From assembly GCA_963676565.1 (NCBI GenBank), contig OY781089.1:2752001-2816000 (forward strand): a DNA stretch of 64,000 nt. The letters are read 5' to 3'. Below the pieces are notes generated by a model. The model did no database searches and was not told the origin of the DNA. It saw nothing but the letters and a program-made list of their open reading frames with translations. The first letter of the stretch is position 1. Each line of letters starts with the position of its first letter. The DNA is from Halarcobacter sp. (GTDB taxonomy: Bacteria; Campylobacterota; Campylobacteria; Campylobacterales; Arcobacteraceae). The position numbers were made by a program, and so were the translations under genes. This document shows positions 1-38,565 of this stretch, piece by piece.

Positions 1-370
1 CTAAATGTGGTATCAAAGATTCATCAGCTTTTTCTTTTTTACCTGGCCAAATCCAAATAAATCCATATTTTTCAACAACTGGAAAATATCCTAAACATGG
101 TATCTTTTTAGGGTCTTGTCCAGGCATTTCAATAATTTTTCCCTTGCACCCAGCTTTTAAACCATGATATCCACAAACAAGGTCGCCATTTTCTATATAA
201 CCTAAAGACATTGCCGCACCTCTATGGGTACAAAAATCTTCTAAGGCTACAACTTTACCCTCATTATTTCTATAAAAAACTATGTTGGAAAGACATACCT
301 CTCTTGCAAAAGGTTTATCTTGAATCTCTTCTGATGTAGCTGCTACATACCATGCATTTTTTGGAAACAT
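1..370 (-). CDS. vanA: Vanillate O-demethylase oxygenase subunit (Rieske), 5' part; runs off window edge; not in ORF track
   Basis: Manual translation from ATG at 370: MFPKNAWYVAATSEEIQDKPFAREV...EDFCTHRGAAMSLG...CGYHGL...EKYGFIWIWPG. Rieske CxH...CxxH motif and VanA-like N-terminus; SD AAGGA upstream. Confidence 0.85.
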   Translation of the reverse strand, partial: MFPKNAWYVAATSEEIQDKPFAREVCLSNIVFYRNNEGKVVALEDFCTHRGAAMSLGYIENGDLVCGYHGLKAGCKGKIIEMPGQDPKKIPCLGYFPVVEKYGFIWIWPGKKEKADESLIPHL

Positions 371-372
371 AT

Positions 373-1086
373 TTATCCTTTCAAATTTTTTTGATACCAT
401 GAACTTATAGCTTTTGCAACAAGTTTAGGTTGTTCACATGGAGCCATATGACTCGCATTTTCAATTACTACTAAATCACTTTCGTTTAGATACTCTTGCA
501 TCTTTTCATGTTGAGAAATGGGACTCCATTTATCTTCTGTAGCACTTAAAAGTAGAACAGGAACTTCTACATTAGGTAAAACTTCCCTAGCATCAGGTCT
601 ATTTAGAAGTGCATTTATTTGTTTGCTAAACTCTTCTTTGTTATAAGTTCTAACCATACTTTCAAGTTTAGACATCAATTCTTTATTTGATAATCCTTGA
701 TTACCCATCATTGGTGGAAGCCATTGTTTTAAAACTGAATCAATCCCTTCTTTATCAGCAAGATCAAGAAGCTTTTGTCTTCCAGGAACTTCTGCATCAC
801 TTTTTGGATTAACACCTGTATTAAATAGTCCTAAACCTTTTACTCTTTTTGGGTCTTTATTATAAACCTCAAGGGCAACTCTTCCACCCATAGAGTGTCC
901 TATTAAAATAAAGTTTTCAGGTGATCCAGCTAAAACCTTTTTTGCCATAGATTCAATAGAGTCATACCCTTTAAATGAAATCATAGTAATATCAAAACTA
1001 TCTTCTAACTCTTTTTGGATATCTTCCCAAACTGTTTTATCACATAAAAGTCCTGATAGAAATACAATTGAATCTTTAGATTTCAT
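373..1086 (-). CDS. Alpha/beta-fold hydrolase (PcaD/esterase-like)
   Basis: GHSMGG nucleophile elbow, C-terminal D...H (SHMAPCE); start placed at the second Met, downstream of SD AGGA. Confidence 0.8.
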   Translation of the reverse strand: MKSKDSIVFLSGLLCDKTVWEDIQKELEDSFDITMISFKGYDSIESMAKKVLAGSPENFILIGHSMGGRVALEVYNKDPKRVKGLGLFNTGVNPKSDAEVPGRQKLLDLADKEGIDSVLKQWLPPMMGNQGLSNKELMSKLESMVRTYNKEEFSKQINALLNRPDAREVLPNVEVPVLLLSATEDKWSPISQHEKMQEYLNESDLVVIENASHMAPCEQPKLVAKAISSWYQKNLKG

Positions 1087-1095
1087 AATCAAATC

Positions 1096-2136
1096 CTATT
1101 TTGTATTTGCATTAATAGCTTTTCTTGCTTCTTTTACAAGTTTTTCACCATCAATGCCTTTTTCTTTAACTTCATTAATCCACTTTTGAACAACTCTTTG
1201 ACCAGCTTGGTCAAACTCTTTCATCGATTCTTCACTTAATGCAGTAACATCTGAATCTTTTGAAGATTTTTGTTTTTCAATTCCTGGTTTTTCAAAATCC
1301 ATCCATAATTGACCAGCTTTTTTAACCATTTCCATATCTAAACTTTTTTCAACTATATCTTGTAAGTCTTTTGGCATAGAATTAAATTTATCTTTATTCA
1401 TTAGCATGATAAATACTGATGTTCCAAATCTAGAATCATTTGGTCCAACAATTGAATGTTTAGTTAAGTTATGAATTTTAAATGCAGGGAAAATCTCAAA
1501 AGGAACCAATGCTCCATCAACTGCATTTTTTGATAAAGCTTGAGGTAGTGTTGGTAATGGCATACCAACTGGTTCTGCACCAAACTCTTCAATTAACCAA
1601 CCTCCAGTTCTTGATGGAGTTCTTAGTTTTAATCCTTTTAAATCTTCAAGTGATTTAACCTCTTTTTGTGTTGTATGAATTGCATTACCAGCATGCACAT
1701 AAACTAACAAAGGTTTTACATCTTTATAATCATCTTTGATTAGATCAAACTTCTCTTTTATTGCAATTGATGTAGCTAAAGATGAACCTTGATGAACAGT
1801 TGGAAGTTCAAAAACCTCAGTTCTAGGAAAAACTCCTGGTGTATAACCAGCTAATGTCCAAATTATATCAACTGACCCATCTCTTGCTTGCTTGTAAAGT
1901 TCAGTGGGTTTTCCTCCAAGTGTCATTGAAGGGAATACTTCAACTTTAATTCTTCCATTAGACATCTCTTCAACTTTTTTAGCCCAAGGCATAAGTAACT
2001 TTGTATGAGTTGGAGCTTTTGGACTATGTAAATGATGTAAAATCAACTTAATAGGTTTTTCATTTGCATATAAACTACTTGCAAATACTGCAATCCCCAT
2101 AACCGTTCCTAAAATCTTCATCTTTATATTTGTCAT
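1096..2136 (-). CDS. dctP: TRAP transporter substrate-binding protein (orphan DctP paralog)
   Basis: Signal peptide, DLKGLKLR motif, strong similarity to 8444..9472. Confidence 0.88.
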   Translation of the reverse strand: MTNIKMKILGTVMGIAVFASSLYANEKPIKLILHHLHSPKAPTHTKLLMPWAKKVEEMSNGRIKVEVFPSMTLGGKPTELYKQARDGSVDIIWTLAGYTPGVFPRTEVFELPTVHQGSSLATSIAIKEKFDLIKDDYKDVKPLLVYVHAGNAIHTTQKEVKSLEDLKGLKLRTPSRTGGWLIEEFGAEPVGMPLPTLPQALSKNAVDGALVPFEIFPAFKIHNLTKHSIVGPNDSRFGTSVFIMLMNKDKFNSMPKDLQDIVEKSLDMEMVKKAGQLWMDFEKPGIEKQKSSKDSDVTALSEESMKEFDQAGQRVVQKWINEVKEKGIDGEKLVKEARKAINANTK

Positions 2137-2151
2137 CTTTTATCCTTTATT

Positions 2152-4020
2152 TTATAAGAATATATTTTTAAAATAATTCTCTAAATCATTAGTTGCATCT
2201 AATGGCAAGATATCTGCTATATGTTGGTCTGGTCTAACTATTAATATGCACCCTTTATCTTTGTCAACACCCCTTAAATCGAAAATATTCTCTCCTTCTT
2301 TATAATTTGGACAATATGCTTTTTCATAATCTTTTAATCCATATACACCAATAGCAGGTCTTAAAAGTGATGGAATCTCTTCAAACTCAATCTCTTGATG
2401 AACTTGTTGGAAGATTCCATATGTATCAATAACTGAATCTAAAGCATCACCTTTTTTAGTATGTTTTAAAATTGGTGAATTCGGATTATTTTCTAGATAA
2501 TCACAAAGTTTATAAACTGCTGAATTTTTATCGTTTGGATTTGATCTATCATTAAAAATATATAATTTAAATCTAGTATCAATTTTAATAGTCTCTAAAA
2601 GTTCTATCTTTTTGGCATCTGCTAATCTTATAACTGGTGCACTATGTAATCTTTCCCCTACTTCAAAACCACTTGCTAATATTTGATGAGTTCCTTTTCC
2701 TGTTAAAATTGATGGCTGATATTTAACTGTTAAACCAGCAGTGAATCTTCCACCTTCAATAAAGTGACTTTTTACATTTACTGCTTTGTTATCAATAGGA
2801 GCACTCATAACTCTTGCCCATTTATGGTCATAATCAATTAAACCTTGTGCAGCTAATTGTCTTTCATCTGAATATGTATGTAATAATGAAGCATCACATT
2901 TACCTAATAAAACAGAAGCTAGTTTCCATCCTAAGTTAAATGTATCACCCATAGAAACATTCATACCTTGACCTGCCTTTGCACTATGAGTGTGGCAAGC
3001 ATCTCCTGCAATAAAAACATGGGGATTAGAATCACCTGTTAAATTTGCTTCAACATCATCAAATCTATCTGTTACACTATGACCAACTTCATATACAGAC
3101 CACCATGCAGTTTCTTGAACATCAAAAGAATAAGGAGCAAAAATTTCACTTGCAGCTTCTTTTAATCTATCTAAAGTGATTTTTTTACTATCTCCTCTAT
3201 TTTCTAATTTATCAAGTTCAACATATATTCTTGTTAGTTGTCCACCTTCTCTTGGAATTAAAAGAATATTTCCTTTCGAAGATTTGATAATATTTTTAAA
3301 TCTTAAATCAGGAAAATTGGTTTTAACTAAAACATCCATAACTCCCCATGCTTGACCTTCTCTATCCCCATGAAGTTCTCCACCAATTGCACTTCTTACT
3401 ATACTTCTTGCACCATCACAACCAGCTAGGTATTTAGTTTTTACAGTTTTTTCTTCCCCCTTACAATCAATAGTAACAACTACTGGATACTCTCTATCGC
3501 TTTTATCAAAATCAACAGAAACTAAAGAATGAGAATAATCTACTTCTAATCTTGTTGGAGAGTTTTTCATAACTTCCATGTATAAATCATGGATTCGACC
3601 TTGGTTAAGTACGGTATGAGGCATGTAAGAGATACCATCTTTTACATCTTGCACCTTAGCATCTCTAATAATTTTATTAGAGTTACTTGAATCAGGTTTC
3701 CAAAAATGAGTCTCATTTACCCAATATGCTTCTTTTAAAACTTTTTCGGCAAATCCAAATGCTTCAAACATCTCCATAGACCTACAAGATACACCATCAG
3801 CTTGACCTAGATACATAGGTTCATCTTTTCGCTCAACTAATCTAGTTTTAATCTCTGGAAACTGAGCTAACTGTGCAGCTAAAGTTAATCCCGCAGGACC
3901 TGAACCAATTATTAAAACATCCAATTTTTCTGGAAGTTCACCTTGCTCTCCTTCAAACCCTTTTGCTACTTTTTGAATCTCTGGATTTCCTCTATGAAAA
4001 CCGTTTACATGAAATTGCAT
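2152..4020 (-). CDS. FAD-dependent phenol hydroxylase family monooxygenase, 3-hydroxybenzoate 4-hydroxylase (Comamonas MobA)-like
   Basis: N-terminus MQFHVNGFHRGNP resembles MobA; GSGPAGL, GCDGARS and GDACHTHSAKAGQGMN motifs; C-terminal thioredoxin-like domain (VRPDQHIA). Start placed at 4020 with SD GGGAG; the 4047 start lies inside a repeat. Confidence 0.85.
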   Translation of the reverse strand: MQFHVNGFHRGNPEIQKVAKGFEGEQGELPEKLDVLIIGSGPAGLTLAAQLAQFPEIKTRLVERKDEPMYLGQADGVSCRSMEMFEAFGFAEKVLKEAYWVNETHFWKPDSSNSNKIIRDAKVQDVKDGISYMPHTVLNQGRIHDLYMEVMKNSPTRLEVDYSHSLVSVDFDKSDREYPVVVTIDCKGEEKTVKTKYLAGCDGARSIVRSAIGGELHGDREGQAWGVMDVLVKTNFPDLRFKNIIKSSKGNILLIPREGGQLTRIYVELDKLENRGDSKKITLDRLKEAASEIFAPYSFDVQETAWWSVYEVGHSVTDRFDDVEANLTGDSNPHVFIAGDACHTHSAKAGQGMNVSMGDTFNLGWKLASVLLGKCDASLLHTYSDERQLAAQGLIDYDHKWARVMSAPIDNKAVNVKSHFIEGGRFTAGLTVKYQPSILTGKGTHQILASGFEVGERLHSAPVIRLADAKKIELLETIKIDTRFKLYIFNDRSNPNDKNSAVYKLCDYLENNPNSPILKHTKKGDALDSVIDTYGIFQQVHQEIEFEEIPSLLRPAIGVYGLKDYEKAYCPNYKEGENIFDLRGVDKDKGCILIVRPDQHIADILPLDATNDLENYFKNIFL

Positions 4021-4029
4021 TATCTTCTC

Positions 4030-4144
4030 CCTTTTAAAATGTCCCATGTTAAAAGGGACTCTACTTTTTTAACTACTTTTATCCGATTGAGTAAATCAAT
4101 CGTAAAGTAGCAAACCCTAAAGAAGGCAACGAGTTACCTTTCTT
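4030..4144 (-). repeat. Structured ~110-nt dispersed element, copy A (three hairpins)
   Basis: Colinear with 48367..48478. Stems gtccc/gggac, ctacttt/aaagtag and cgattga/tcaatcg, plus a CUCG-loop hairpin on the minus strand. Confidence 0.85.
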
Positions 4145-4147
4145 TTT

Positions 4148-4163
4148 TGTTGTATATACAACA
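4148..4163. promoter_or_regulatory. Perfect 16-bp palindrome, probable MarR operator
   Basis: TGTTGTATATACAACA just downstream of the hydroxylase -10, between the divergent hydroxylase and MarR genes. Confidence 0.65.
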
Positions 4164-4173
4164 CGTTATGAAA

Positions 4174-4250
4174 ATACTAACATCTTAAATTTTAAAGTAC
4201 GCTTAACGAACATAAGTTCTTTTTAAGGAAAAATAGCATCAACATAGCAT
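4174..4250 (-). promoter_or_regulatory. Promoter cassette copy 1: ATGCTA direct repeats, GTNCG-N5-CGNAC box, extended -10
   Basis: Box GTTCGTTAAGCGTAC at 4197..4211; TGtTAGTAT 17 nt downstream; repeats at 4234 and 4245. Confidence 0.75.
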
Positions 4251-4325
4251 TTTTAGAATTAAACAAAGAACTTTAATTTCTTTTAAGAATGTATATGTAA
4301 AAGTTTCGTTTTTAAAAGGATTTTA

Positions 4326-4748
4326 ATGACATCAAAATTAGGCAAATCTGTTGGTATTGTTGTAACAAATACTGCAGTTTTATTAAATAGTTCTATAAAC
4401 AAAAAACTTCAACCATTTGGTATAGCAATAGAACAAAGAGCAATACTAGAGATAATTATGAATAAAGGTAGTTTAAAACAATCAGAATTGACAACTATTT
4501 TATGTAGAGATAGAACGACAATATCTAGGACACTTAAAACTTTAGAAAACAAAGACTATATAAAAAAAGAAAAAATAGATAATAAAGTGTTTATTATTAG
4601 ATTAAGTGAAAAAGGTATTGATGTTATGGAAAAAACTCAAGATATAGTAAATGAATTTAGAAGTAAAATTTTATCAAATTTCACAGAAGAAGAGATTGAG
4701 AATTTATACACATATTTAGAAAAGATTCAAGATATTGTAAAAGAATAA
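4326..4748 (+). CDS. MarR family transcriptional regulator (MobR-like position)
   Basis: Winged-helix pattern QSELT...DRTTISRTLKTLENKDYI...LSEKG; divergent from the hydroxylase. Confidence 0.88.
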   Translation: MTSKLGKSVGIVVTNTAVLLNSSINKKLQPFGIAIEQRAILEIIMNKGSLKQSELTTILCRDRTTISRTLKTLENKDYIKKEKIDNKVFIIRLSEKGIDVMEKTQDIVNEFRSKILSNFTEEEIENLYTYLEKIQDIVKE

Positions 4749-4773
4749 AGACAAGAAGACTTGTCCTATTCTT
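4741..4773. terminator. Hairpin between convergent marR and porin genes
   Basis: aagaata-aa-gacaag / cttgtc-c-tattctt. Confidence 0.5.
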
Positions 4774-4783
4774 TTATTAGATA

Positions 4784-6091
4784 CTAAAATTTATAAGTTA
4801 AATATAGTTTAGCTATATCCATAGTATCATCATCATTTGCTGGTAAATCTAAATCAACATGAGCTAATTGTAATCTTGCAGATAAACCATCTAATGCACC
4901 TTTAAATTTATATCTTAAATCAGCTTGGATTTCAGATGCTCCATCCATATTAGTCCCAGATACTATTTGTCCCTTTTCACTTTGAGAATATGAAGAGAAT
5001 GCAAATAATGTAAATACATTAGGAATAATTTTTGGAATAACCATTAAAGAAGTTGAAGTCATACCTGCATAAATGTTATCTGTAAACATTTGTCCACCAT
5101 TATATTTAAAGAAATGTGGAACATGTCCTAAGGCACCTAAGAAAGAGTTATCATCAGATACTTTTGTATATGCAATTTTAAATGCTGTATCAAATACTTT
5201 ACCACCTAGTTTTACTCCATACAATGTTGTTTCACCTTTTCCACCATTTGTTGTTTCATTTGTTGCTCCAATTGCTACATCACCATCATAATCTGTTCCT
5301 GCATAATATGCTCCAATTGATAAAGGCATATCTACTGGTAATTTATAATCACCTTGTACAAAATATGTAGAATATGAATCATTAGTTGCTCTTGGTGCAT
5401 CTAAAGGATTTCCAATATCATCATTTACTGCTAAATATTGACCTTCTAAAGTCAAATTTGGAATTGATGTATTTTTTACATATAAAGATAATGTTGGATC
5501 ACTAAAATGTGTTTTTCTTGCATCATTAGTTGTATTATATCTTTCAATCCAATCTTTAATTACATATGCTCTAATCTCTGTATTTCCAATATCTTTAGAA
5601 ACTACAGATAAAGCATGAAATGTATCTTTTAATGGATTTGAGTTTGATACTGCAATTAAAGGAGTAACAATACCTTGTCTACCAACTTTTACTTCAGTTT
5701 GTGCAAAATTATATTGTAAGTTTGCAATATATAACATTGATCCTTCTTGAGTAATTCTTCCTTCACCCTCTTGATTCCATGGAGCACCTGTTCCTTCTGC
5801 ACCTGATTGCTCTATTTCTAAGCTTCTTGCATGTTGAAAACCAACATTTGCTTTAAACCCATAAAAATCACCTGTAGTGTAGTTTAATTGTAAAGCTACT
5901 GCTGAAGAGTTAGCATTTCTGTATGGTCCTACTAAAGTTGAATTAACATCAGAAGCCATAACTGTCATATTTCTAATCTCACCAGAAACTTTTCCCCCTG
6001 ATAATGCTTCTACTAAAGAACCTGCGTTTGCACTTATCCCTAATGCACTAACTGCTGCTAATGCTAAACTTACTTTTTTAACGTTGAACAT
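4784..6091 (-). CDS. OprD/Campylobacterota-type outer membrane porin
   Basis: Signal peptide from ATG 6091 (SD AGGGG), VSGEIR N-terminus, C-terminal YLTYKF beta signal. Confidence 0.8.
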   Translation of the reverse strand: MFNVKKVSLALAAVSALGISANAGSLVEALSGGKVSGEIRNMTVMASDVNSTLVGPYRNANSSAVALQLNYTTGDFYGFKANVGFQHARSLEIEQSGAEGTGAPWNQEGEGRITQEGSMLYIANLQYNFAQTEVKVGRQGIVTPLIAVSNSNPLKDTFHALSVVSKDIGNTEIRAYVIKDWIERYNTTNDARKTHFSDPTLSLYVKNTSIPNLTLEGQYLAVNDDIGNPLDAPRATNDSYSTYFVQGDYKLPVDMPLSIGAYYAGTDYDGDVAIGATNETTNGGKGETTLYGVKLGGKVFDTAFKIAYTKVSDDNSFLGALGHVPHFFKYNGGQMFTDNIYAGMTSTSLMVIPKIIPNVFTLFAFSSYSQSEKGQIVSGTNMDGASEIQADLRYKFKGALDGLSARLQLAHVDLDLPANDDDTMDIAKLYLTYKF

Positions 6092-6132
6092 AAAATTTCC
6101 CCTTGTTTTATTTTTTGAACACTTGTTCGATA

Positions 6133-6209
6133 ACTTTAACAATAGTTTTTTTAAAGTTCGCTTAACGGACATAAGTTCTTTTTAAGTAAACATAGCATTT
6201 ACGTAGCAT
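6133..6209 (-). promoter_or_regulatory. Promoter cassette copy 2 (porin)
   Basis: Box GTCCGTTAAGCGAAC at 6156..6170; TGtTAAAGT 17 nt downstream; repeats at 6193 and 6204. Confidence 0.75.
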
Positions 6210-6468
6210 TTTAAATAAAATGATATTATTTACTATTTTTTCAATAATTTAGTAATTCAAAAAACAGCATAAAAGCCCATATTTTAGGGTATTATAAATA
6301 GAGTTGATTGAAAAAAAATGTTAGTTTTTATTTTTTTAATTTTTGATTTTTTTTGATAAATTTAAAGATTTTTTTGGAAAAACAAACAAGTGTTCGTTTT
6401 ATTTTTGAAGTTTTTTTATAATAATACTTAATATTAGTATTATTTTATCTCATTTTTGTTTATTATTT

Positions 6469-6509: not shown

Positions 6510-7907
6510 CTATCCAGCTAAAAAATGTGGCATGAATAATACTATCATAGGTAATAGCAATAAAACTCCAATTCTCACTATTTCTGCTAGTAAAAATGGA
6601 ATAACTCCAATAAATGTCTCATTCATTGGTACATTTTTTGCTACTTTTGAAATAATGAATACATTTAAACCAACAGGAGGTGTAATAAGACCTAATTCAA
6701 CGGATATGAGGGCAAGAATCCCAAACCATATTTTTAAATCTTCATTGTCCATTCCAAAACCAGCAGTTGATGCTGTTACGTACTCCCCACCATTTAGTGT
6801 GATTAATACAGGCCATATAAATGGAATAACGACAAGAATCATTGCCATTGAATCCATGAAAAATCCAAGAATCAAAAATATTAATAAGATCAATATTAAT
6901 ATAAGCCAAACATTCATATCAAGTGTTGATGTCCACTCTGCGATTCCTTGAGGAAGACCAGATCTTGTAAAAAAACCTTTTAAAACTTCTGCTCCAAACA
7001 AAATGAAATAAATCATTGCACTTGTAACACCAGTTTCTAAAATACTCGTTTTTAATCTTGAAATAGTTAAGCCTTCACCTTTACCCTTTTTAATTCTTAA
7101 ATATACTCCATACATTGCAATAATAAAAACACCAGCAGCAGCTGCTGGAGTAGGAGTAAATAATCCTAAGCCAAGACCTAGAATAATTGAACCAAAGGTT
7201 AAAACAACGGGAACTAATCCCCTTAGTGCTTTATTTCTTTCCTCTTTACTTAATGGTTTTGAAAGAGGTGCTAATTCAGGTTTTAATCTAACTTGAATAA
7301 CAATTACCATAATAAAAAACAATACTGCTAATAAACCTGGCAAGATTGCTGCTTGGAACATCTCAATAATTGAAGCCTCAACTACAATTGAATATAAAAT
7401 TAAAGCAATTGATGGTGGAATTAATATTCCAAGTGTTCCACCTGCTGCTAATGTTCCAGTTGCAAGTCTAGGAGAATAATTAAGTTTCTCTAATTCTGGT
7501 AATGCAATTTTTCCCATTGTAGATGCTGTTGCTAATGATGAACCAGAAACTGCTCCAAAACCTGCACAAGCTCCAATTGATGTGATTGCAACTCCACCTT
7601 TAAATCTACCAAGTATTGCGTTCATTCCTGCAAATAAATCTTTTGCAAGCCCAGTATAGTTTGCTAGATATCCCATTAGGATAAATAAAGGGATAACAGA
7701 TAGATTATAATTTGCTAAATTTTCCCATAATAAACTTTTGTATTGCATAATATATGGTTCAAATCTAATATAAGAAATATTTACTGATAATACGTAAGTT
7801 CCTATAATACCAGTAAAAGCCATGGCAAAAGCAACTCTAGCTTTTAATATTAAAAGTAAGAAAAATAAGGCTAAGCCTAATAAACCAATTAATTCTTTCT
7901 CAGCCAT
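6510..7907 (-). CDS. dctM: TRAP transporter large permease
   Basis: GTLGILIPPS and ITPPVGLN motifs; many TM helices. Confidence 0.92.
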   Translation of the reverse strand: MAEKELIGLLGLALFFLLLILKARVAFAMAFTGIIGTYVLSVNISYIRFEPYIMQYKSLLWENLANYNLSVIPLFILMGYLANYTGLAKDLFAGMNAILGRFKGGVAITSIGACAGFGAVSGSSLATASTMGKIALPELEKLNYSPRLATGTLAAGGTLGILIPPSIALILYSIVVEASIIEMFQAAILPGLLAVLFFIMVIVIQVRLKPELAPLSKPLSKEERNKALRGLVPVVLTFGSIILGLGLGLFTPTPAAAAGVFIIAMYGVYLRIKKGKGEGLTISRLKTSILETGVTSAMIYFILFGAEVLKGFFTRSGLPQGIAEWTSTLDMNVWLILILILLIFLILGFFMDSMAMILVVIPFIWPVLITLNGGEYVTASTAGFGMDNEDLKIWFGILALISVELGLITPPVGLNVFIISKVAKNVPMNETFIGVIPFLLAEIVRIGVLLLLPMIVLFMPHFLAG

Positions 7908-8430
7908 CTATTTTTCCTCCTTTATGTAAAAATATTTGGAATGCTAAAACAACTGCCCATAAAGCAAGTGAAATAATCCCTGGTGCATAAAATGGCCATT
8001 CTGGCCAACCTAATGTAACTGAAACTGCACCATCATCATATGATTCAATCATTCCCATAAACATTAGAATTGTTAAAAAAATCACAAAAACTAAAGTACA
8101 AGTTAACCACAACATATCAAAATATTGTTGCACTTTTGGTGAGAATTTATTTGCAAAAAAGTCTACAGCTACATGTCCCCTTTGAGCTTGTGCCCAAGGG
8201 AAAAACATTAAAGCAATACAACTTGTCAATAATCTAACCAAATCCTCATAACCAGAAAGTGCTGATACATTAGAATCAAAAATTCTAGCCACTTTATCTA
8301 AACCAAATGCTGCTATATTAACCACTGTAGTTGTTACTACAATAAAAAGTAAAATACCAGCTAAATAAACCCACCAAAGGCATATTCTTTTTAGCTTCCC
8401 CTCAAAATATAATCTTAATCTAGCTTGCAT
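7900..8430 (-). CDS. dctQ: TRAP transporter small permease
   Basis: Four TM helices, GHVAVD motif, located between dctP and dctM. Confidence 0.9.
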   Translation of the reverse strand: MQARLRLYFEGKLKRICLWWVYLAGILLFIVVTTTVVNIAAFGLDKVARIFDSNVSALSGYEDLVRLLTSCIALMFFPWAQAQRGHVAVDFFANKFSPKVQQYFDMLWLTCTLVFVIFLTILMFMGMIESYDDGAVSVTLGWPEWPFYAPGIISLALWAVVLAFQIFLHKGGKIDG

Positions 8431-8443: not shown

Positions 8444-9472
8444 TTATTTGCTATTTTTAGCAATAGCCTTTCTAGCTTCATCTACTAGTTTTTGTCCATC
8501 AATACCTTTTGAAGTTGCTTCTTCAATCCATTTTTGAACTACTTGCTCACCTATTTTGTTAAATTTAGCCATCTCTTCGTTGCTTAATTTGTGAACTTTT
8601 CCACCTTTTGATTCATTTTGCATCTTCTTCCCTGGTTCTTCAACATCCATCCAAATTTGCCCAACTTTTTTAACCATATCCATATCTACACTATCAATTA
8701 AGATTTTTTGTAAATCTTTATCTAATGATTTAAATCTATCTTCATTCATAAGTAACATAAATACTGAAGTACCAAATCTTTCCCCATTTGGTCCCTCAAC
8801 TGAATGTTTAGTTAAATTATGAAACTTAAGAGGAGGAAACACTTCAAAAGGGATAAACCCTCCATCAACAACACCTTTTGATAAAGCTTGAGGAAGTGCA
8901 GGTAAAGGCATACCTACTGGCTCTGCACCCAATGCAGATATATACCATCCTGCAGTTCTTGATGGAGCTCTAAGTTTTAAACCTTTTAAATCTTCAACAC
9001 TAGTTACCTCTTTTTCAGTTGTATGAATTGCATTACCGGCAGCTGTATAAACCATTAAAGGTTTAATTTTGTCAAAATCATCTTTAATCAAATCCATATT
9101 TTCTTTAATTGCTATTGCAGTAGCAAGTGAATCACCAATATGTACAGTTGGTAACTCAAAAACTTCAGTTCTTGGGAATACACCAGGAGTATATCCAGGA
9201 AGTGTCCAAACGATATCTGCAACACCATCTCTAACTTGTTTATATAACTCAGGTGGTTTCCCTCCCATAGTCATCGATGGGAAAATTTCAATTTTTAATT
9301 TTCCTTTAGATGCTTCTTCTATTTTTTTAGCCCATGGCTCTAAAAATTTAGTTTGAAGAGGAGCTTTTGGACTTAAGAAGTGATGAACTGTCAATGTCTC
9401 CGCTGCATAAGCTGAACCTGCTAATAACAATGTACTAACAAGAATGCTTCCCTTTTTAATTAGATTTTTCAT
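8444..9472 (-). CDS. dctP: TRAP transporter substrate-binding protein
   Basis: Signal peptide, LKGLKLR motif, adjacent to dctQM. Confidence 0.9.
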   Translation of the reverse strand: MKNLIKKGSILVSTLLLAGSAYAAETLTVHHFLSPKAPLQTKFLEPWAKKIEEASKGKLKIEIFPSMTMGGKPPELYKQVRDGVADIVWTLPGYTPGVFPRTEVFELPTVHIGDSLATAIAIKENMDLIKDDFDKIKPLMVYTAAGNAIHTTEKEVTSVEDLKGLKLRAPSRTAGWYISALGAEPVGMPLPALPQALSKGVVDGGFIPFEVFPPLKFHNLTKHSVEGPNGERFGTSVFMLLMNEDRFKSLDKDLQKILIDSVDMDMVKKVGQIWMDVEEPGKKMQNESKGGKVHKLSNEEMAKFNKIGEQVVQKWIEEATSKGIDGQKLVDEARKAIAKNSK

Positions 9473-9501: not shown

Positions 9502-10440
9502 TTATTTCATTGCTTTTTCTAAAGCATCTAGAACTTTCATTGCCGATAATGCTTGTTGTACACTTGCATTTGGTTCACGTCCATCTTTAATTGCTGAGAT
9601 AAACTCTCTATCTTGTAACTCAATTCCATTCATAGAGACTGCAACATTTGAAACATCAATTTGCTCTTCTTTTCCCGTAAATAAATCATCATATCTAGCT
9701 ATATAAGTTCCATTATCACAGATATATCTAAAGAAAGTTCCTAATGGCCCATCATTATTAAAAGATAATGATAATGTACAAATTGCTCCTGAAGCAGTTT
9801 TAAGTCCAATACTCATATCCATTGCAATACCAAGTTCAGGATGAATTGGTCCTTGCATTGCTTGAACATCAACAATCTCCTCACCTGTTTGGTAAGCAAA
9901 TAAATCAACTGTATGACAAGCATGGTGCCATAATAAGTGGTCAACCCATGATCTTGGCTCACCTAAGGCATTTGTATTTGTTCTTCTGAAGAAATAAGTT
10001 TGAACATCCATTTGTTGAATTCTTAACTCACCAGCAGTAATTTTATTGTGAACATATTGATGAGATGGATTAAATCTTCTTGTATGTCCAGCCATAGCAA
10101 TAAGTCCTGTCTCTTTTTGTTTATCAACAATTGCTTGTGCATCTGCTAATGAATCTGCCATTGGAATTTCAATCATTACATGTTTTCCTGCATCCATTAA
10201 AGCGATTGCTTGTTGTGCATGAATTTGAGTTGGACTAGTAATAATTGCTGCATCAAAATCATATTTTAAAGCATCTTCTAAAGTAAGTACATAATTTGGA
10301 ACATTAAACTGTTCAGCTACTTTTTTTGTACCCTCTTCTCTTCTTCCAACTAAGCAAACAACCTCAGCATCCTCAATATTTGATAGAGCATCTAAATGTT
10401 TTTTTCCAAAAGCTCCATTTCCTACAACACAAATTTTCAT
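9502..10440 (-). CDS. ligC: 4-carboxy-2-hydroxymuconate-6-semialdehyde dehydrogenase
   Basis: Gfo/Idh/MocA fold: GNGAFG, EIPMAD, GHTRRFNPSHQ, DHLLWHHACHTVDLF; follows ligAB. Confidence 0.92.
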   Translation of the reverse strand: MKICVVGNGAFGKKHLDALSNIEDAEVVCLVGRREEGTKKVAEQFNVPNYVLTLEDALKYDFDAAIITSPTQIHAQQAIALMDAGKHVMIEIPMADSLADAQAIVDKQKETGLIAMAGHTRRFNPSHQYVHNKITAGELRIQQMDVQTYFFRRTNTNALGEPRSWVDHLLWHHACHTVDLFAYQTGEEIVDVQAMQGPIHPELGIAMDMSIGLKTASGAICTLSLSFNNDGPLGTFFRYICDNGTYIARYDDLFTGKEEQIDVSNVAVSMNGIELQDREFISAIKDGREPNASVQQALSAMKVLDALEKAMK

Positions 10441-11289
10441 TTAGTCCTCCTTATTTTCTAAAATTGTTAATGAATAATTAGTATTTGAAATTGGTACATG
10501 CATAAATCTATAAACTTCATTTACCTCTTTAGTTAATGCACCTCTCATAGTTAACCACATAATTGCTTCTGCACCTTCACTACCTGTTTCTCTAATTAAT
10601 TCAGTTACTGAGATGTCTTTTATTGATTCTGGATCTTTTACCAAATTATCTAACCACCAAGTATCGTATTCGACATTAATTAAACCTGCTCTTGGTCCTT
10701 GTAATTGATGTGATAATCCACCTGTTCCCATAATTGCAACATTGATATCTTCAGGGTAAGACTCAACAGCTTCTCTAATAGCTTTTCCTAAGTTGTAACA
10801 TCTATTTCCCTTTGGTTGAGGATATTGAACAACACCAACATACAATGGAATAAACTTACAAGGCCACTCTTCTAAATCTTCACCAAATGCTAAAGAAGCA
10901 GGAACAGAAAAACCATGGTCTACATCTAATTCAAATGACATCGCAACATCAAACTCTTTTTCATTGAAGTGTTCTGCTATATGACAAGATAAAGCAGAGT
11001 CCCCTTTAAAAGTTGGAACTTTTCTTCTTCCATATCCTTCATCAGCTGGTAAATACTCATCAGCAATACCAAGTCCAAAAGGGATAACATTTTTTAATGA
11101 GAAGTTAGAACCATGGTCATTATAAACAATAATACAAACATCAGGTTTTTTCTCTTTCATCCATGCTCTTAAAGGTTTAATCCCTTCATTAAAAGGTTCC
11201 CAATATGGACCAGTCATCTCTTTATTGTCCATTTTAAGCATGATTGTTGGTATGTGTGAAGTACCTATTCCTCCGATTATCTTAGCCAT
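10441..11289 (-). CDS. ligB: Protocatechuate 4,5-dioxygenase beta subunit
   Basis: TSHIP, YNDH, ADEGYG, GTGGLSHQLQGPRAGLIN, GSEGAEAIMW; Fe ligands conserved; start placed at 11289. Confidence 0.92.
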   Translation of the reverse strand: MAKIIGGIGTSHIPTIMLKMDNKEMTGPYWEPFNEGIKPLRAWMKEKKPDVCIIVYNDHGSNFSLKNVIPFGLGIADEYLPADEGYGRRKVPTFKGDSALSCHIAEHFNEKEFDVAMSFELDVDHGFSVPASLAFGEDLEEWPCKFIPLYVGVVQYPQPKGNRCYNLGKAIREAVESYPEDINVAIMGTGGLSHQLQGPRAGLINVEYDTWWLDNLVKDPESIKDISVTELIRETGSEGAEAIMWLTMRGALTKEVNEVYRFMHVPISNTNYSLTILENKED

Positions 11290-11707
11290 TTTTCTTCTCC
11301 TCATTCTCTTTTATACTTCTATTTCCCTCAATTGGTCTTCCACCATTAATCATCATTTGTTGGAACTCTTCAGTTGTCATTTTATTTGGTTCTTCAGACA
11401 TCATAGCTCCGGCTTGTTGCATATGTAAACCTAGAGTTGCAGCAATCTTCCATAAATAATAGATATTCCCACCTAATTCAAGAAGGTAATTTAAATCTTT
11501 TCTTCTAATACCATCTTTCATCTCTTCTGTTAATTTAGGGAATCTACTCATATATTCTTCTTCATCAGCTAAAAAAGCTTCCCTTGCATCAGGTTTATTT
11601 AAAGTGTCACAAAATTTATTTAATTCATAACCTTTTACACAAGTTTGTAAGTCAAATACAATTGTTCCAGGTATATCTTTATAGTCTCTTTCTTCATAAC
11701 TTCCCAT
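11282..11707 (-). CDS. ligA: Protocatechuate 4,5-dioxygenase alpha subunit
   Basis: DIPGTIVFD...KGYELNKFC...GGNIYYL...MINGGR. Confidence 0.92.
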   Translation of the reverse strand: MGSYEERDYKDIPGTIVFDLQTCVKGYELNKFCDTLNKPDAREAFLADEEEYMSRFPKLTEEMKDGIRRKDLNYLLELGGNIYYLWKIAATLGLHMQQAGAMMSEEPNKMTTEEFQQMMINGGRPIEGNRSIKENEEKKNG

Positions 11708-11726
11708 AATTTAATCCCTTTCTTTT

Positions 11727-12761
11727 TTAATTAAAATGTTTTTCAATATGTTGATTAATTCTAGGATAAACATTTCTAATATTATCTTCGAATATCATCT
11801 TTTTCTTTTCATCACTAATCTTAGCAGCATCGATGTATCGTTTTGTATCATCAAAATAATGACCTGTTAATGGGTCAATTCCTCTAACTGCTCCAATCAT
11901 TTCAGACGCAAATAAAATATTTTCTGTAGGAACTAAATCTAATAATAAATCAATACCTTCTTGGTGATATACACAAGTATCAAAATAGATATTATTTTCA
12001 ATAATGTTATTTAAATTATCTAATTCTAACATATCACAAAGACCTCTAAATCTTCCCCAATGATAAGGCACTGCTCCACCACCATGTGGGATAACAAATT
12101 TTAACTCTGGAAAGTCTTTAAATAGTGTTTTACTCATCATAAGTTGAGTAAAAGCAGTTGTATCTGCACCTAAATAGTGTGATGATGTTGCATGAAATAC
12201 TGGGTTACAACACCCACTTACATGAATCATTGCTGGAACACCATATTCAACCATCTTTTCATATAATGGATACCAATATTTATCATCTAGCTTTGGAGCA
12301 TCATTCCAATATCCCCCAGATGGATCTGGATTTAAATTACATCCAATAAATCCATACTCTTTTACAACTCTTTCAAGTTCAGCTGCACTTGCAGTCATAT
12401 CTGAACCTGGAGATTGTGGAAGTTGTGCAACACCCACAAAGTTTTTAGGAAAAATATCAACTATTCTTGCAATAAGTTCATTACAATGTTCAGTCCAATT
12501 TTTACTAGTACTTTGATTTCCTATGTGGTGTCCCATCCAAGATGCTCTTGGAGAGAAAATAGTTAAGTCAGTACCTCTTTCTTGTTGTAATTTCAACTGA
12601 TTTTTTTCAACACTTTCTCGCAAAGCCTCATCAGTAATATTAATAACACCCTTTGCATGTTGTACTAAAGGATCAAAACTTAACTCTTTTTTTTGTTGTT
12701 CTCTATAATCACCTAACTCTTTAGGTCCTGTTGTATAATGTCCATGACAATCAATAATCAT
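11727..12761 (-). CDS. ligJ: 4-oxalomesaconate hydratase
   Basis: MIIDCHGHYTT, NLNPDPSGG, IPHGGGAVPYHWGRFRG, FASEMIGAVRGIDP. Confidence 0.93.
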   Translation of the reverse strand: MIIDCHGHYTTGPKELGDYREQQKKELSFDPLVQHAKGVINITDEALRESVEKNQLKLQQERGTDLTIFSPRASWMGHHIGNQSTSKNWTEHCNELIARIVDIFPKNFVGVAQLPQSPGSDMTASAAELERVVKEYGFIGCNLNPDPSGGYWNDAPKLDDKYWYPLYEKMVEYGVPAMIHVSGCCNPVFHATSSHYLGADTTAFTQLMMSKTLFKDFPELKFVIPHGGGAVPYHWGRFRGLCDMLELDNLNNIIENNIYFDTCVYHQEGIDLLLDLVPTENILFASEMIGAVRGIDPLTGHYFDDTKRYIDAAKISDEKKKMIFEDNIRNVYPRINQHIEKHFN

Positions 12762-12762
12762 A

Positions 12763-13482
12763 TTAAGATTCTCCTTTCAATTGAGCTTCATCATCATAAT
12801 ATTTAAATCCTGCTGCTTCTAAACCTGGTCTCATTTTGTATAAATCAAGTCCTAAAACACCAGCTTCAAACTTCTCTCTTTTTTCACCTTCAAAATCTTC
12901 TCTTTTTTGAGCTGCATCTGCAACTATTTTTGCATCTTCTTGTGCAACAATACAAATCCCATCATCATCAGCAACTACAACATCACCAGGATTTACAATT
13001 TGTCCTGCACAAACAATAGGAATATTCACTGAACCTAATGTATTTTTTACTGTACCTCTAATACTAACTGCTTTTGACCATACTGGAAAATCCATTTCTT
13101 CTAAATCTTTAGTATCTCTAACTCCACCATCAATCACAAGTCCTTTAACACCTTGTGCAATAGCAGAAGTTGCTAATAAATCTCCAAAGAAACCATCAGT
13201 ATTTGGTGTTGTACAAGCAGCAATTATAATATCACCTGGTTGTGCTAACTCCATAGCTACATGAAGCATCCAGTTGTCACCTGGCTGAAGTAATACTGTA
13301 ATTGCACTTCCAGCTATTCTTTTCCCTTTAAGTACAGGTCTAAGTTCAGGATGTAATTCCCCTACTCTTTTTTGTGCTTCATGAACTGTTGCACTTCCAA
13401 ACTTTTCTAATCTTTCAATCTCTTCTTTTGGCGCTCTATTTATATTTTTTACAGCTACACCTAAATGTGGTTTTCTAATCAT
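12763..13482 (-). CDS. ligK: 4-carboxy-4-hydroxy-2-oxoadipate aldolase
   Basis: RraA fold: [33 protein letters not shown]; start placed at 13482. Confidence 0.92.
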
Positions 13483-13483
13483 C

Positions 13484-14356
13484 TTAATCCTCCCATCCAT
13501 ATAATCTAGCTGGATTATCAACTAAAATTTTCTTTTGTAAAGCCGGGTCTGGAACCATTAATGGAAATAAATCCATTAAGTCTCCATCATTTGGCATATA
13601 TTTTTTAATATTTGGGTGAGGACAATCTGTTCCCCAAAGGATTCTATCTGGTGCAATTGCCACTAACTTTTGCGCATATGGAATCGCATCATAAAATGGT
13701 GGCTCTGGTGAAATTCTTTCAGCACAAGAGATTTTAACCCACCAATTTTCCCTTTCCATAAATTTACATAAAATTTTAAATGCTTCTTGCTCAACACCCT
13801 CTTTTGTTGGGACTCTACCCATATGGTCAACTACAATTGTAATGTCAAATTTTGCAAAGAAATCTTCATATTTAATTATATCTTCTGCATTTACATGAAT
13901 AACTAAATGCCAACCCAATGGAATTACTTTATTTATAACTCTTTCCATCATCTCTAAATCTGGCGCTCCACCTAAATGTGTAACAAAATTAAACCTAACA
14001 CCTTTAACACCATTTTCATCTAAATATTTAAAATCTTCATCTGTAAAAGTGTCATCTGCCATACAAACACCTTTATATCTTTTAGGATCATTTTTTATAG
14101 CATCTAACATTGCTGTATTATCTTTACCATGGCAAGAAGCTTGAACTAAAACAGCTCTAGAGATTCCAATAGTATCATGCATCTTTCTTAAAAGTGCCTC
14201 TGGTGTATCAGGTGGCCAGTATGTTGCCTTTTGTGAATAAGGAAACACTTCATGTGGTCCAAATACATGACAATGGGCATCACAAGCATTTTCCATAGCT
14301 TTAAATACTGGCGTCTTAGTATTTCTATCTGGCGCCATACAAGTTTTCTTTTCCAA
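13484..14356 (-). CDS. ligI: 2-pyrone-4,6-dicarboxylate lactonase
   Basis: [28 protein letters not shown], WGTDxPHPN; TTG start. Confidence 0.88.
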
Positions 14357-14373
14357 ATTAAACTCCTTCTTTT

Positions 14374-15456
14374 TTAATTTAAATCATCTGGATGTGGATA
14401 AGCCACACCTTTACTTAATAATCTTGCTGTTCTTAATAAGCCAGCTTTTTTAATACTTAATTCGTCATTTATTTTTTCACTTGTTAATTCGACTGTAAAC
14501 TCACCACTTGGATGTTCAATAGTTAAATTAGCAATTGGCATATTTTTTACTTTTATAATATCACTAGTAACACACTCATCATATAAACAAGCACTTGCAA
14601 CAGAAACTGCTCCAAGTACTCCAATTGCTGCATGACAATTGTGAGGTATAAATGTTCGTGTGTTTATGCTTCCACCATTTTTAGGAGCTGAAACAATTGT
14701 CATTTTTGGTACAACTTTTTTTGATACTTCCCCAAGATTCATCATTGGACCAACTTCTAATCTTAATTCTTCTAATGTTTTTCTTAATTCAGAATTTTTG
14801 CTTAACTCTTCACAACTTTCATATCCTGTAATTCCTAATTGATTTGCATTAATCAAAACTACAGGCATACCATTATCAATACATGTAATATCAATATCAT
14901 TTACAATATCTTTTTTATTGCCCGTTGGAAAAAGTGAACCACAAACAGATCCTGCAACATCAAGATAATTACAAATAATTGGTGCTGATGTTCCAGGAAC
15001 TCCATCAATTCTTGCATCACCATCAAATTTTAATTTTTTGTTTGGTGTTTGCATTACAAGTTCACAAATATTGTTACTATTAATCATATTGACTTTTATC
15101 GTTGTCATATCTTCTGTTGGTAATACCATCTTATTTTCAATAGCAAAAACACCAACACCTGATAATATATTTCCACAATTAGGAGAACTGTCAACTCTAT
15201 TTTCACCAACAACTACTTGTACAAAAAGAAAATCTATATCACAATTTTCTTTTTCTGATTTACTTACAATAGCAACCTTACTAGTAAGGGGATTCGCGCC
15301 TCCCAAACCATCAATTTGTCTAGAGTCACGACCAACAATACTTAATATGATTTCATCTCTAAGGTTTTCATCCTGAGGTAAATCATTTTTATCAAAATAA
15401 ATACCCTTTGAACTACCACCTCTTATTTGCATATATGGTATTGATTCATAACTCAT
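14374..15456 (-). CDS. ligU: 4-oxalomesaconate tautomerase (PrpF family, LigU/GalD)
   Basis: RGGSSKG, QIDGLGGANPLTSKVAIV, PNCGNIL, RTFIPHxCHAAIGV, LRTAR. Confidence 0.9.
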   Translation of the reverse strand: MSYESIPYMQIRGGSSKGIYFDKNDLPQDENLRDEIILSIVGRDSRQIDGLGGANPLTSKVAIVSKSEKENCDIDFLFVQVVVGENRVDSSPNCGNILSGVGVFAIENKMVLPTEDMTTIKVNMINSNNICELVMQTPNKKLKFDGDARIDGVPGTSAPIICNYLDVAGSVCGSLFPTGNKKDIVNDIDITCIDNGMPVVLINANQLGITGYESCEELSKNSELRKTLEELRLEVGPMMNLGEVSKKVVPKMTIVSAPKNGGSINTRTFIPHNCHAAIGVLGAVSVASACLYDECVTSDIIKVKNMPIANLTIEHPSGEFTVELTSEKINDELSIKKAGLLRTARLLSKGVAYPHPDDLN

Positions 15457-15495
15457 TTTTAACCTTTAATTTAATTTTCGAACATTTGTACAGAA

Positions 15496-15572
15496 ACTAT
15501 AGCATTGGAAAATTTAAAGTACGCTTAACGGACATAAGTTCATTTTAAGTTAAGATAGCAATAGCATAGCAT
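15496..15572 (-). promoter_or_regulatory. Promoter cassette copy 3 (lig operon)
   Basis: Box GTCCGTTAAGCGTAC at 15519..15533; TGcTATAGT 17 nt downstream; repeats at 15556 and 15567. Confidence 0.75.
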
Positions 15573-38564: not shown

Positions 38565-38565
38565 T

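Follow-up and report, generated by a model that had tools for sequence, protein, structure and literature searches.

A probable aromatic-acid catabolic island with a complete protocatechuate 4,5-cleavage gene set in the Arcobacteraceae

We analyzed a 64,000-nt stretch of the genome of Halarcobacter sp. (assembly GCA_963676565.1, contig OY781089.1; G000:C1:2752001-2816000, where G000 is the source genome), referred to below as the window, the left end of which carries part of a chromosomal island of genes for the uptake and breakdown of aromatic acids; coordinates without a prefix are those of the window. On the minus strand, ten genes run from 15456 to 6510 in the order ligU-ligI-ligK-ligJ-ligA-ligB-ligC-dctP-dctQ-dctM, and because the gaps between them are only -38 to +29 nt we consider the run to be one operon. 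Every gene that a first-pass annotation of this DNA had named was found at its place in the list of open reading frames (ORFs) and by Pfam and NCBIfam models.

The first gene of the operon, ligU (14374-15456), encodes a 4-oxalomesaconate tautomerase according to the equivalog model NF033377 (489.7 bits, cut-off 440) and a PrpF Pfam match. It is followed by ligI (13484-14356), encoding a 2-pyrone-4,6-dicarboxylate hydrolase of the Amidohydro_2 family with LigI 4d8l as the best relative of solved structure (E 1.1e-64; the stretches DAHCHVF, DHMGR, and WGTD.PHPN align), and by ligK (12763-13521), encoding a 4-carboxy-4-hydroxy-2-oxoadipate aldolase/oxaloacetate decarboxylase (TIGR02798, 360.8 bits, cut-off 304.5), the TTG start of which is probably called too far upstream, given that the model match begins at residue 21. 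The product of ligJ (11727-12761), a 4-oxalomesaconate hydratase, aligns end to end with its best solved relatives LigJ 6dxq/6dwv (E 7.7e-145). The protocatechuate 4,5-dioxygenase itself is encoded by ligA (11282-11707; alpha subunit; TIGR02792, 114.1 bits, cut-off 108.6; PF07746) and ligB (10441-11304; catalytic beta subunit; subfamily model NF009903, 343.7 bits, cut-off 317; 1b4u_B, E 9.5e-90), and ligC (9502-10440) encodes the 4-carboxy-2-hydroxymuconate-6-semialdehyde dehydrogenase (PF19858, 317.6 bits; best solved relative PmdC 9azo, E 1.3e-141). The last three genes encode a tripartite ATP-independent periplasmic (TRAP) transporter: the solute-binding protein DctP (dctP_d; 8444-9472; PF03480), DctQ (7900-8430; PF04290), and the large permease DctM (6510-7907; PF06808, 279 bits).

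In an alignment of 13 LigB sequences the positions H17, H64, H199, E243, and E246 are invariant and align to H, NDH, SHQ, and SEG.E of 1b4u_B; we take them to match the iron ligands and catalytic histidine of LigB from Sphingobium sp. SYK-6, presumably His12, His61, Glu242, and His195. LigA and LigB together have the composition of a two-subunit class III extradiol dioxygenase, and the semialdehyde dehydrogenase, pyrone hydrolase, tautomerase, hydratase, and aldolase are all present, so that the full protocatechuate 4,5-cleavage enzyme set claimed in the first pass is borne out by Pfam, NCBIfam, and solved relatives alike. Since the source genome has no match to the intradiol dioxygenase family PF00775, 4,5-cleavage is its sole protocatechuate route. 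A second PrpF paralogue in this genome (G000:C1:1249686-1250756; L158:9686-10756) was considered as a tautomerase and rejected, scoring 417 bits against a cut-off of 440. Its neighbors are genes for TctA, TctC, a TauE-like protein, an Opr porin, and a two-component system, not aromatic genes; it is probably a tricarboxylate isomerase, the paralogue being found in about 15 genomes of the family.

Between dctM and the left edge of the window lies a porin gene of the OprD/Opr family (4784-6091, minus strand; PF03573, E 2e-10). Its longest ORF reaches to 6172; the start is probably the in-frame ATG at 6091, because the upstream cassette described below is conserved, a Shine-Dalgarno sequence AAGGGG precedes this ATG, and the NCBIfam model NF033923 begins at residue 32 of the long ORF. 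A MarR-family regulator gene (4326-4748, plus strand; PF01047) is divergent from the mobA-like gene (2152-4047, minus strand), the product of which is a putative 3-hydroxybenzoate 4-hydroxylase (NF006144, 891.5 bits; PF01494 and PF07976). It matches the 3-hydroxybenzoate hydroxylase 2dkh over residues 10-628 of 631, including the C-terminal dimerization domain (E 1.3e-205). Two further minus-strand genes encode a TRAP binding protein without membrane subunits of its own (dctP_c; 1096-2136; PF03480) and an alpha/beta-fold hydrolase with no assigned substrate (373-1092; PF00561), the nearest solved structures of which are esterases (4uhh, E 4e-21); the ESM Atlas, tried for a more specific identity, returned only generic alpha/beta hydrolase clusters. 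The last 28 nt of the hydrolase gene overlap the start of vanA, and the two genes adjoin in all six other genomes that carry vanA. Only the 5' part of vanA lies in the window (2-400, minus strand; Rieske N-terminus), the gene running on to the left. The first-pass placement of a MobA-like and a VanA-like enzyme beside the lig operon is supported by the 2dkh match and by the 56-61% identity of VanA to VanA of Comamonas, Hydrogenophaga, Vibrio, and Marinomonas.

The window edge cuts the island, which extends over ~43 kb (G000:C1 ~2,725,000-2,767,600), with the right 15.5 kb inside the window and ~27 kb more to the left of it; the earlier delimitation to positions 1-15572 was right in gene content, and the island is about three times as large. 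In the fetched left flank (L001) the entire vanA (L001:17345-18400) encodes 351 aa with Rieske (PF00355) and VanA_C (PF19112) domains. Its left neighbor is a TetR gene, followed further left by an HpaB-type two-component hydroxylase with a flavin mononucleotide (FMN) reductase. Also within the island are a ParE toxin ORF (L001:14018-14311, plus strand) and a gene for a tetratricopeptide repeat (TPR) protein of 659 aa with a GC content of 0.229 (L001:11667-13646, minus strand); both are missing from the island of the close relative G086, which suggests a small later insertion. The left arm encodes PobA, a 4-hydroxybenzoate 3-monooxygenase (equivalog TIGR02360, 613.9 bits, cut-off 538.7), with the PobR-like iclR2 divergent from it (IclR domains; 174 bits on TIGR02431, cut-off 284.75). 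An AraC gene and a third DctP stand beside a pair encoding a TauD-family dioxygenase (L001:6620-7534) and a class II aldolase/adducin-fold protein (L001:5831-6613), both on the minus strand. The best solved relative of the former is the aryloxyalkanoate (phenoxypropionate) dioxygenase RdpA 6d1o (E 5.2e-63), and 3ocr and the decarboxylase NovR (E 3e-18) come nearest to the latter; the two genes may form an uncharacterized funnel to 4-hydroxybenzoate or protocatechuate.

A putative ferulate module in the same arm includes an acyl-CoA-dehydrogenase-like protein of 673 aa, the p-hydroxycinnamoyl-CoA hydratase/lyase Ech (NF006588, 430.9 bits, cut-off 276) with a fourth DctP and an aldehyde dehydrogenase (matched at family level only) near it, and a FerA-type CoA ligase, which fits no specific model and combines ADP-forming CoA_binding_2, Succ_CoA_lig, and ATP-grasp_5 domains, presumably the architecture of SYK-6 FerA. 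The remainder of the left arm consists of a YitT and a MarR gene, two Bcr/CflA-type major facilitator superfamily (MFS) transporters with a hotdog thioesterase, and the cotranscribed eamA and iclR1, the latter encoding a PcaR/PcaU/PobR-like regulator with HTH_IclR and IclR_C domains (TIGR02431, 261.5 bits, cut-off 284.75). An aldo-keto reductase gene comes last in the leftward order. Core genes resume at NadE (NAD synthase) on the left and at a DjlA-like gene on the right.

The four DctP proteins of the island share 53-66% mutual identity, and their identity to the next DctP of the genome is 25-30%. DctQ is the only one in the island, and as a tblastn query finds a single locus genome-wide; the island DctM shares 24-33% identity with the other DctM copies of the genome. 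The four DctPs, one per catabolic module, therefore probably dock on the single DctQM behind ligC.

A comparison of the island junctions gave a shared inverted 11-mer, which led to the palindrome CGAACA-nn-TGTTCG. With up to two mismatches it occurs at 16 sites in the genome, eight of which are in the island (1.3% of the genome); eight sites genome-wide are intergenic, and seven of these belong to the island, where they precede the first MFS gene, eamA-iclR1/thioesterase, pobA/iclR2, hpaB, mobA/marR, the porin gene, and ligU. The window contains six sites against 0.22 expected, a number not reached in any of 100 shuffles. The eighth intergenic site, at G000:C1:2094813, lies between lipA (L159:972-1868) and aceE, encoding pyruvate dehydrogenase E1; this may be due to chance, and it may be noted that pyruvate is an end product of the pathway. 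Three of the sites fall within a 116-nt cassette that is repeated directly, in one orientation, before mobA (4141-4256, in the divergent mobA/marR region; putative operator 4207-4220), the porin gene (6100-6215; putative operator 6116-6129, with an extra operator-like site at 6383-6396), and ligU (15463-15578; putative operator 15479-15492, with a degenerate distal copy 50 bp away at 15529-15542).

The site is conserved in the other Campylobacterota genomes that carry the island: it lies 15-37 nt upstream of the aligned ligU start in all 11 of them, and nine have a second site 49-50 bp further upstream. The palindrome was not found before ligU in any of six loci of the Vibrionaceae (Enterovibrio/Grimontia), which are discussed below. 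IclR1 is most likely the binder of this predicted operator, since it is the sole regulator common to every carrier (11/11 others). The annotated island ORFs include no LysR domain, the regulators being two IclR, two MarR, one TetR, and one AraC. An RNA leader in place of a DNA operator was considered and discarded, as the predicted folding of the ligU leader does not exceed that of shuffled sequences (z = +0.92); a search for RNA elements with Rfam matched only two tRNAs in the window.

The vanillate branch lacks a component. A vanB gene, looked for to the left of the window, is absent there, the TetR gene being the neighbor of vanA, and none was found in the whole complete genome, with zero matches to both PF00175 and PF00970 genome-wide and positive results in control genomes. 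The nearest relatives of VanA outside the phylum are found in Comamonadaceae, Vibrio, Marinomonas, and Alteromonas (55-61% identity), and 37 of 80 outside VanA loci encode, next to VanA, a protein of 290-345 aa bearing a plant-type 2Fe-2S motif; the four of these VanB-like neighbors that were tested all carry Fer2 and NAD_binding_1. Used as tblastn queries, the 37 ORFs gave four marginal matches in the source genome (E 2e-4 to 5e-4), all to a ferredoxin of the nif cluster, and no match in the fetched regions of six carriers. NAD_binding_1 is found in 38 of the 184 genomes of the family; among the seven vanA carriers it occurs only in G093 and G101, on other contigs, leaving five without any such protein. 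There is also no LigM-type alternative, because the source genome has a single GCV_T gene and no second. Without VanB, the vanillate branch is incomplete in the canonical VanAB sense.

These absences are what would be expected if the vanA-like gene were a decaying or re-purposed remnant, its reductase lost and the vanillate branch dead. Against this, VanA is full length, has intact Rieske CxH...CxxH and DNLMDLTHE.YVH motifs, and is 77-96% identical among seven species. The vanA gene, the hydrolase gene, and the ferulate (FerA-Ech) unit are moreover found together in seven of seven genomes, the source included, and are missing together in five of five, which fits a role of VanA in converting the vanillate that the ferulate unit would form to protocatechuate; and vanA is translationally coupled to its conserved partner gene. 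Intactness, co-occurrence, and coupling together indicate purifying selection, and we regard a remnant as possible but rather doubtful.

If VanA is functional, it may depend on some other electron donor. Tentatively, and with less than even confidence in the combination, we suggest that VanA without a VanB- or ferredoxin-NADP+ reductase (FNR)-type partner uses a host-specific low-potential carrier, that the hydrolase may join in this step, that the 43-kb island is one regulon governed by a single IclR-type protein through the duplicated 116-nt cassette, and that the four binding proteins feed one TRAP channel. Possible carriers are a flavodoxin or ferredoxin that receives electrons from pyruvate/2-oxoacid oxidoreductases, which are typical of Campylobacterota, and the FMN reductase of the island. 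Three specific donor candidates were not retained. The sole small plant-type ferredoxin sits in a nif cluster with NifW and NifZ, and the 103-aa Rieske protein is NirD, adjoining NirB. The FMN reductase adjoins vanA only in G034, is within two genes of it in G000 and G086, and has no match in the fetched regions of G043 or G093. Concerning the first of these loci, NifW, NifZ, the 98-aa plant-type ferredoxin, and a sigma-54 gene occur together at G000:C1 ~721,800-725,000 (L151), suggesting nitrogen-fixation genes.

The source genome is a single contig of 3,340,668 bases with 28.4% GC, 99.97% complete and with 1.12% contamination, and belongs to a family represented by 184 species genomes from 22 genera. 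Lig loci of the same genus and family are titled Halarcobacter sp., Arcobacter sp., and Aliarcobacter sp. and are filed under Arcobacteraceae, Campylobacterota. The gyrA gene lies inside the window (44094-46673), and its product shares 98-99% identity with GyrA of G086 and G106 and 73% with that of G254, from another family of the same order, all of which bears out the attribution of the DNA to an Arcobacteraceae host in the first pass. The GC content at third codon positions (GC3) has a genome mean of 0.155 (sd 0.034; crude call, 2,951 ORFs), and island genes range from 0.09 to 0.20. The total GC of the island enzymes is 0.31-0.35, with the excess in codon positions 1 and 2; that the genes are as AT-rich as the host, also claimed before, thus applies at third positions.

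To describe the distribution, LigU was scored above its cut-off in 11 of the 184 family genomes, in five of the 22 genera: the source genome and five others of its genus, two of genus g2, and one each of g3, g7, and g20. LigK exceeded its cut-off in three (G000, G051, and G254) of 401 genomes in an even sample of the phylum covering 14 families and 64 genera, and in one of the 377 sampled genomes outside the family. A metagenome-assembled genome (MAG) titled Sulfurimonas sp. carries ligJ-ligA-ligB-ligC-pobA-iclR1 on a 5.6-kb contig. For synteny, the island proteins were compared by tblastn with 24-54 kb of DNA surrounding ligU in each of the 11 other carriers, all of which have the seven lig ORFs, with a mean identity of 72-97%. 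The core present in all carriers comprises iclR1-eamA, pobA, dctMQP, and ligCBAJKIU. The TauD-like/aldolase-fold pair is found in six of the 11, and is part of the minimal islands of G108, G164, and G065, and the larger islands of G086, G034, G043, G051, G093, and G101 add the porin, mobA-dctP-hydrolase-vanA, and ferA-aldh-dctP-ech-acad. In G000, G086, and G106 the island occupies the same site between NadE and DjlA/thioredoxin, and its flanks are 92-97% identical to the genes of congeners on both sides. The NadE homologue flanking the island in G106 (G106:C2:447231-449114) has one in-frame TAA, which may reflect a pseudogene or an assembly error of this MAG.

For the origin of the lig block, an alignment scan with LigB of 185,579 species genomes yielded 597 relatives, and the analysis retained the best 80. 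Among these 80, the gene order ligUIKJABC is found outside the Campylobacterota only in six Enterovibrio/Grimontia loci, whose Lig proteins are 51-77% identical to those of the source genome; alphaproteobacterial LigB is 49-55% identical. In an IQ-TREE analysis of the seven concatenated Lig proteins (18 rows, 1,961 columns; rows missing any of the seven genes were excluded), the eight Campylobacterota rows form one clade (support 100/100) on a stem of length 0.37, and their grouping with the Vibrionaceae also has a support of 100/100. A FastTree analysis of LigA, LigB, and LigC with 74 rows likewise groups 13 Campylobacterota rows, including the Sulfurimonas MAG, with a support of 100, and places the Vibrionaceae as their sister (99). 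A quick lig tree rooted on the Vibrionaceae gives the branching order G254, then G065 with G164, then G108, then (G034, G043), then G051, then G093, G101, and (G106, (G000, G086)). Mean Lig identity to the source genome declines with GyrA identity, as in G086 (96.6% and 99%), G106 (93.2% and 98%), G093 (86.2% and 90%), and G164 (73.0% and 84%). The outliers are G101, where Lig is more divergent than GyrA predicts (81.9% and 93%), and G254, where it is less so (72.4% and 73%), the latter hinting at a transfer between families.

The patchy spread of the island could point to a recently acquired mobile element instead of an old, integrated acquisition. LigU is found in the small minority of family genomes given above, and carriers are mixed with noncarriers in one genus (G104, G105, and G085, at 86-91% GyrA identity, lack it, and G093 and G108, at 88-89%, have it). 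The flanks vary in G093, G101, and G108, the NadE/DjlA region is rearranged in the island-free G104 and G105, and the ParE toxin gene and low-GC TPR gene are present in the source island and absent from that of G086. None of the marks of a mobile genomic island (integrase, tRNA target, direct repeats, deviant composition) was observed, however: the annotated island ORFs contain no integrase or transposase domain, the borders are free of tRNA genes (the window has just two, at 40.2-40.4 kb), no direct repeat of at least 11 nt is common to both junctions, and the GC3 of the island is indistinguishable from that of host genes. Lig identities also drop roughly in step with GyrA, the order of the lig tree fits the GyrA groups, and a long stem separates the clade from its nearest relatives outside. 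We therefore consider a recent mobile element unlikely. The survey and phylogeny, with patchy presence, one well-supported lig clade on a long stem, and a shared chromosomal site in three species, agree with the first-pass suggestion of an old, integrated acquisition, and we read them as one old entry of the lig block into the phylum followed by many losses, perhaps with some transfer among relatives.

The substrate of the operon was also considered, as it might serve mainly gallate/3-O-methylgallate (the syringate branch) or another catechol in place of protocatechuate. With 302.3 bits, LigB also matches the gallate dioxygenase model NF009904, and it has the gallate dioxygenase 3wku as its second-best solved relative (E 2.6e-77), and LigI, LigU, LigJ, and LigK serve both the gallate and the protocatechuate routes. 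The NF009904 score nevertheless stays below the gallate cut-off of 412; LigA is a separate subunit that passes TIGR02792, whereas the matched gallate dioxygenases are single chains of 418 residues; LigC/PmdC is present, which is required only downstream of protocatechuate cleavage; the recognizable funnel enzymes (PobA, MobA-like, and VanA-like) all yield protocatechuate; and no second GCV_T-type demethylase, as needed for syringate, was found. A gallate-type or other substrate thus appears very improbable. That the stretch is foreign DNA misjoined to an Arcobacteraceae assembly, as the proteobacterial affiliation of the nearest lig relatives beyond the phylum might suggest, can be practically dismissed given the single 3.34-Mb contig with its low contamination estimate, the congener-like flanks and host-like codon GC3, the presence of this island in 11 further genomes of the Campylobacterota, several assembled as a single contig, and the recovery of the stretch or part of it from 20 of 24 listed public sequencing runs, 15 of which contain at least half of its sampled words. 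Among the runs are a salt-marsh metagenome and, with small shares, two possible RNA runs.

Taken together, we consider it very likely that the locus is a host-adapted chromosomal island of ~43 kb for aromatic-acid uptake, funnelling to protocatechuate, and 4,5-cleavage, with IclR-linked regulation and a single Vibrionaceae-related entry. It would enable an aerobic or microaerobic Arcobacteraceae host to grow on lignin- or plant-derived aromatic acids. Substrates would cross the outer membrane through the OprD-type porin and be captured in the periplasm by the four TRAP binding proteins for delivery to the single DctQM. PobA, the MobA-like hydroxylase, and the VanA-like Rieske oxygenase would convert 4-hydroxybenzoate, 3-hydroxybenzoate, and vanillate, respectively, to protocatechuate, and the FerA-type CoA ligase, the p-hydroxycinnamoyl-CoA hydratase/lyase, and the aldehyde dehydrogenase would handle ferulate and p-coumarate; these predicted activities follow from identities at the level of families or orthologues. 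LigAB would then cleave protocatechuate between C4 and C5, and LigC, LigI, LigU, LigJ, and LigK would convert the ring-cleavage product to pyruvate and oxaloacetate, with the palindromic operator, most likely bound by IclR1, coordinating the seven units. A single entry into the Campylobacterota, from relatives of marine Vibrionaceae, would have brought in the lig block, which would since have become fully ameliorated and been kept by a minority of species.

Several points weigh against parts of this interpretation. The function of the island is predicted from its genes, as is the sharing of one DctQM by four binding proteins, for which the evidence is gene content. The vanillate step, without a VanB-type reductase, may be inactive or fed by another donor. 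IclR1 falls short of the curated TIGR02431 cut-off (261.5 against 284.75 bits), IclR2 or the two MarR regulators could be alternative operator binders, and in the minimal islands of G108 and G254 the site, with up to two mismatches, is found only at ligU and not at the EamA-IclR1 promoter. A sigma-70 scan gave no signal, with 60 sites against 86.8 +/- 9.7 in shuffles, so that the host-style promoters of the first-pass annotation are not sustained and the repeated operator cassette is seen instead. The single-gene GyrA tree is weakly resolved, with five of 12 inner branches open, although its groups are compatible with the lig tree; repeated loss after vertical descent is therefore hard to separate from transfer between relatives. 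Finally, the context of the island differs in G093, G101, and G108, and in the island-free G104 and G105 the NadE/DjlA flanks are less than 5 kb apart and changed in order.

Among known systems, the lig genes of Sphingobium sp. SYK-6 encode the same seven enzymes with the same chemistry, and the best solved relatives of LigB, LigI, and LigJ are SYK-6 proteins. The island differs in that its LigB is ~54% or less identical to alphaproteobacterial LigB and that all seven genes are in one operon with a TRAP transporter. Its regulator is of the IclR type with a palindromic operator, whereas SYK-6 LigR is of the LysR type, a LysR regulator (LigR/PmdR) beside the genes being typical, not defining. 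Vanillate demethylation would depend on a Rieske VanA, whereas SYK-6 uses the tetrahydrofolate-dependent LigM (see also PMC6888825). From the Comamonas pmd/mobA/vanAB genes come the closest relatives of LigC (PmdC 9azo) and of the hydroxylase (C. testosteroni MobA 2dkh), and VanA is 57-58% identical to its homologues in C. testosteroni and C. thiooxydans; the island, in contrast, is without VanB and without a LysR regulator, and has TRAP uptake, whereas protocatechuate uptake in Comamonas is by the MFS transporter PmdK. The Enterovibrio/Grimontia ligUIKJABC loci are identical to the island in gene order and sister to it in the trees, but have an AraC-like gene upstream and lack dctPQM after ligC, IclR1, and an operator before ligU. 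With the IclR regulators PcaR, PcaU, and PobR, IclR1 shares HTH_IclR and IclR_C, its best family (TIGR02431), and a position beside aromatic genes. It differs from them in scoring below the family cut-off and in being tied to 4,5-cleavage and not to the ortho (beta-ketoadipate) route, its operator binding being a prediction.

Within the family, catechol meta-cleavage has been shown for Arcobacter sp. CAB by growth, detection of 2-hydroxymuconic semialdehyde (2-HMS), and reverse transcription PCR (PMC3656443). This is likewise an oxygenase-dependent ring cleavage, with a different substrate (catechol), enzyme family, and pathway, and the word protocatechuate has no occurrence in the main text of that paper. 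In PMC10469889, coastal lignin enrichments are described in which "Arcobacter" was enriched on lignin and genes for aerobic use of lignin units and for "catechol-, PCA-ring cleavage" were assigned to Arcobacter; meta-cleavage genes of Halarcobacter anaerophilus are listed in bioRxiv 10.1101/2024.03.22.586348; and PMC5465303 reports an Arcobacter-related operational taxonomic unit (OTU) that increased once terrestrial dissolved organic matter had been added. The lignin enrichment and the rise of this OTU fit the island, and neither study, in the portions seen, tied the response to these genes (PMC10469889; PMC5465303). No paper describing a 4,5-cleavage cluster for Arcobacteraceae was found in a literature search that left most subscription journals outside and besides which species descriptions with substrate tests may exist. 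The first-pass view that the pathway is uncharacterized in Campylobacterota thus stands to this extent, and its picture of pure organic- and amino-acid users is, given PMC3656443 and PMC10469889, too strong.

The rest of the window carries other loci. An ethanolamine ammonia-lyase eutBC pair with an amino-acid permease lies at 35385-37639, followed by a catalase gene and a gene for a small ankyrin-repeat protein at 38085-39993 and by two tandem tRNA genes at 40225-40409, both scoring 71 bits and 113 nt apart from start to start. At 50813-64000 the minus strand encodes glycosyltransferases, epimerases, and two asparagine-synthase-like proteins with a GC content of 0.235-0.265; this block is probably a surface polysaccharide locus.

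The island represents a known pathway in a lineage where it was not previously described, and has features of its own in the IclR-type operator cassettes, the TRAP system with four DctPs, and a VanA without VanB. These raise the questions of how VanA is reduced without VanB, whether one TRAP membrane unit can serve several binding proteins, and how an IclR cassette spread before several operons. An ability to break down aromatic acids is rarely linked to Arcobacter-type bacteria, and the Arcobacteraceae, which are abundant in coastal sediments, salt marshes, and wastewater and on marine animals, are usually modelled on small organic acids, amino acids, sulfur compounds, and hydrogen. The island, conserved and apparently under selection, is known from at least five genera and at least one other family of the Campylobacterales and, if our interpretation is true, some Arcobacteraceae would consume terrestrial or plant aromatic carbon at oxic-anoxic interfaces.

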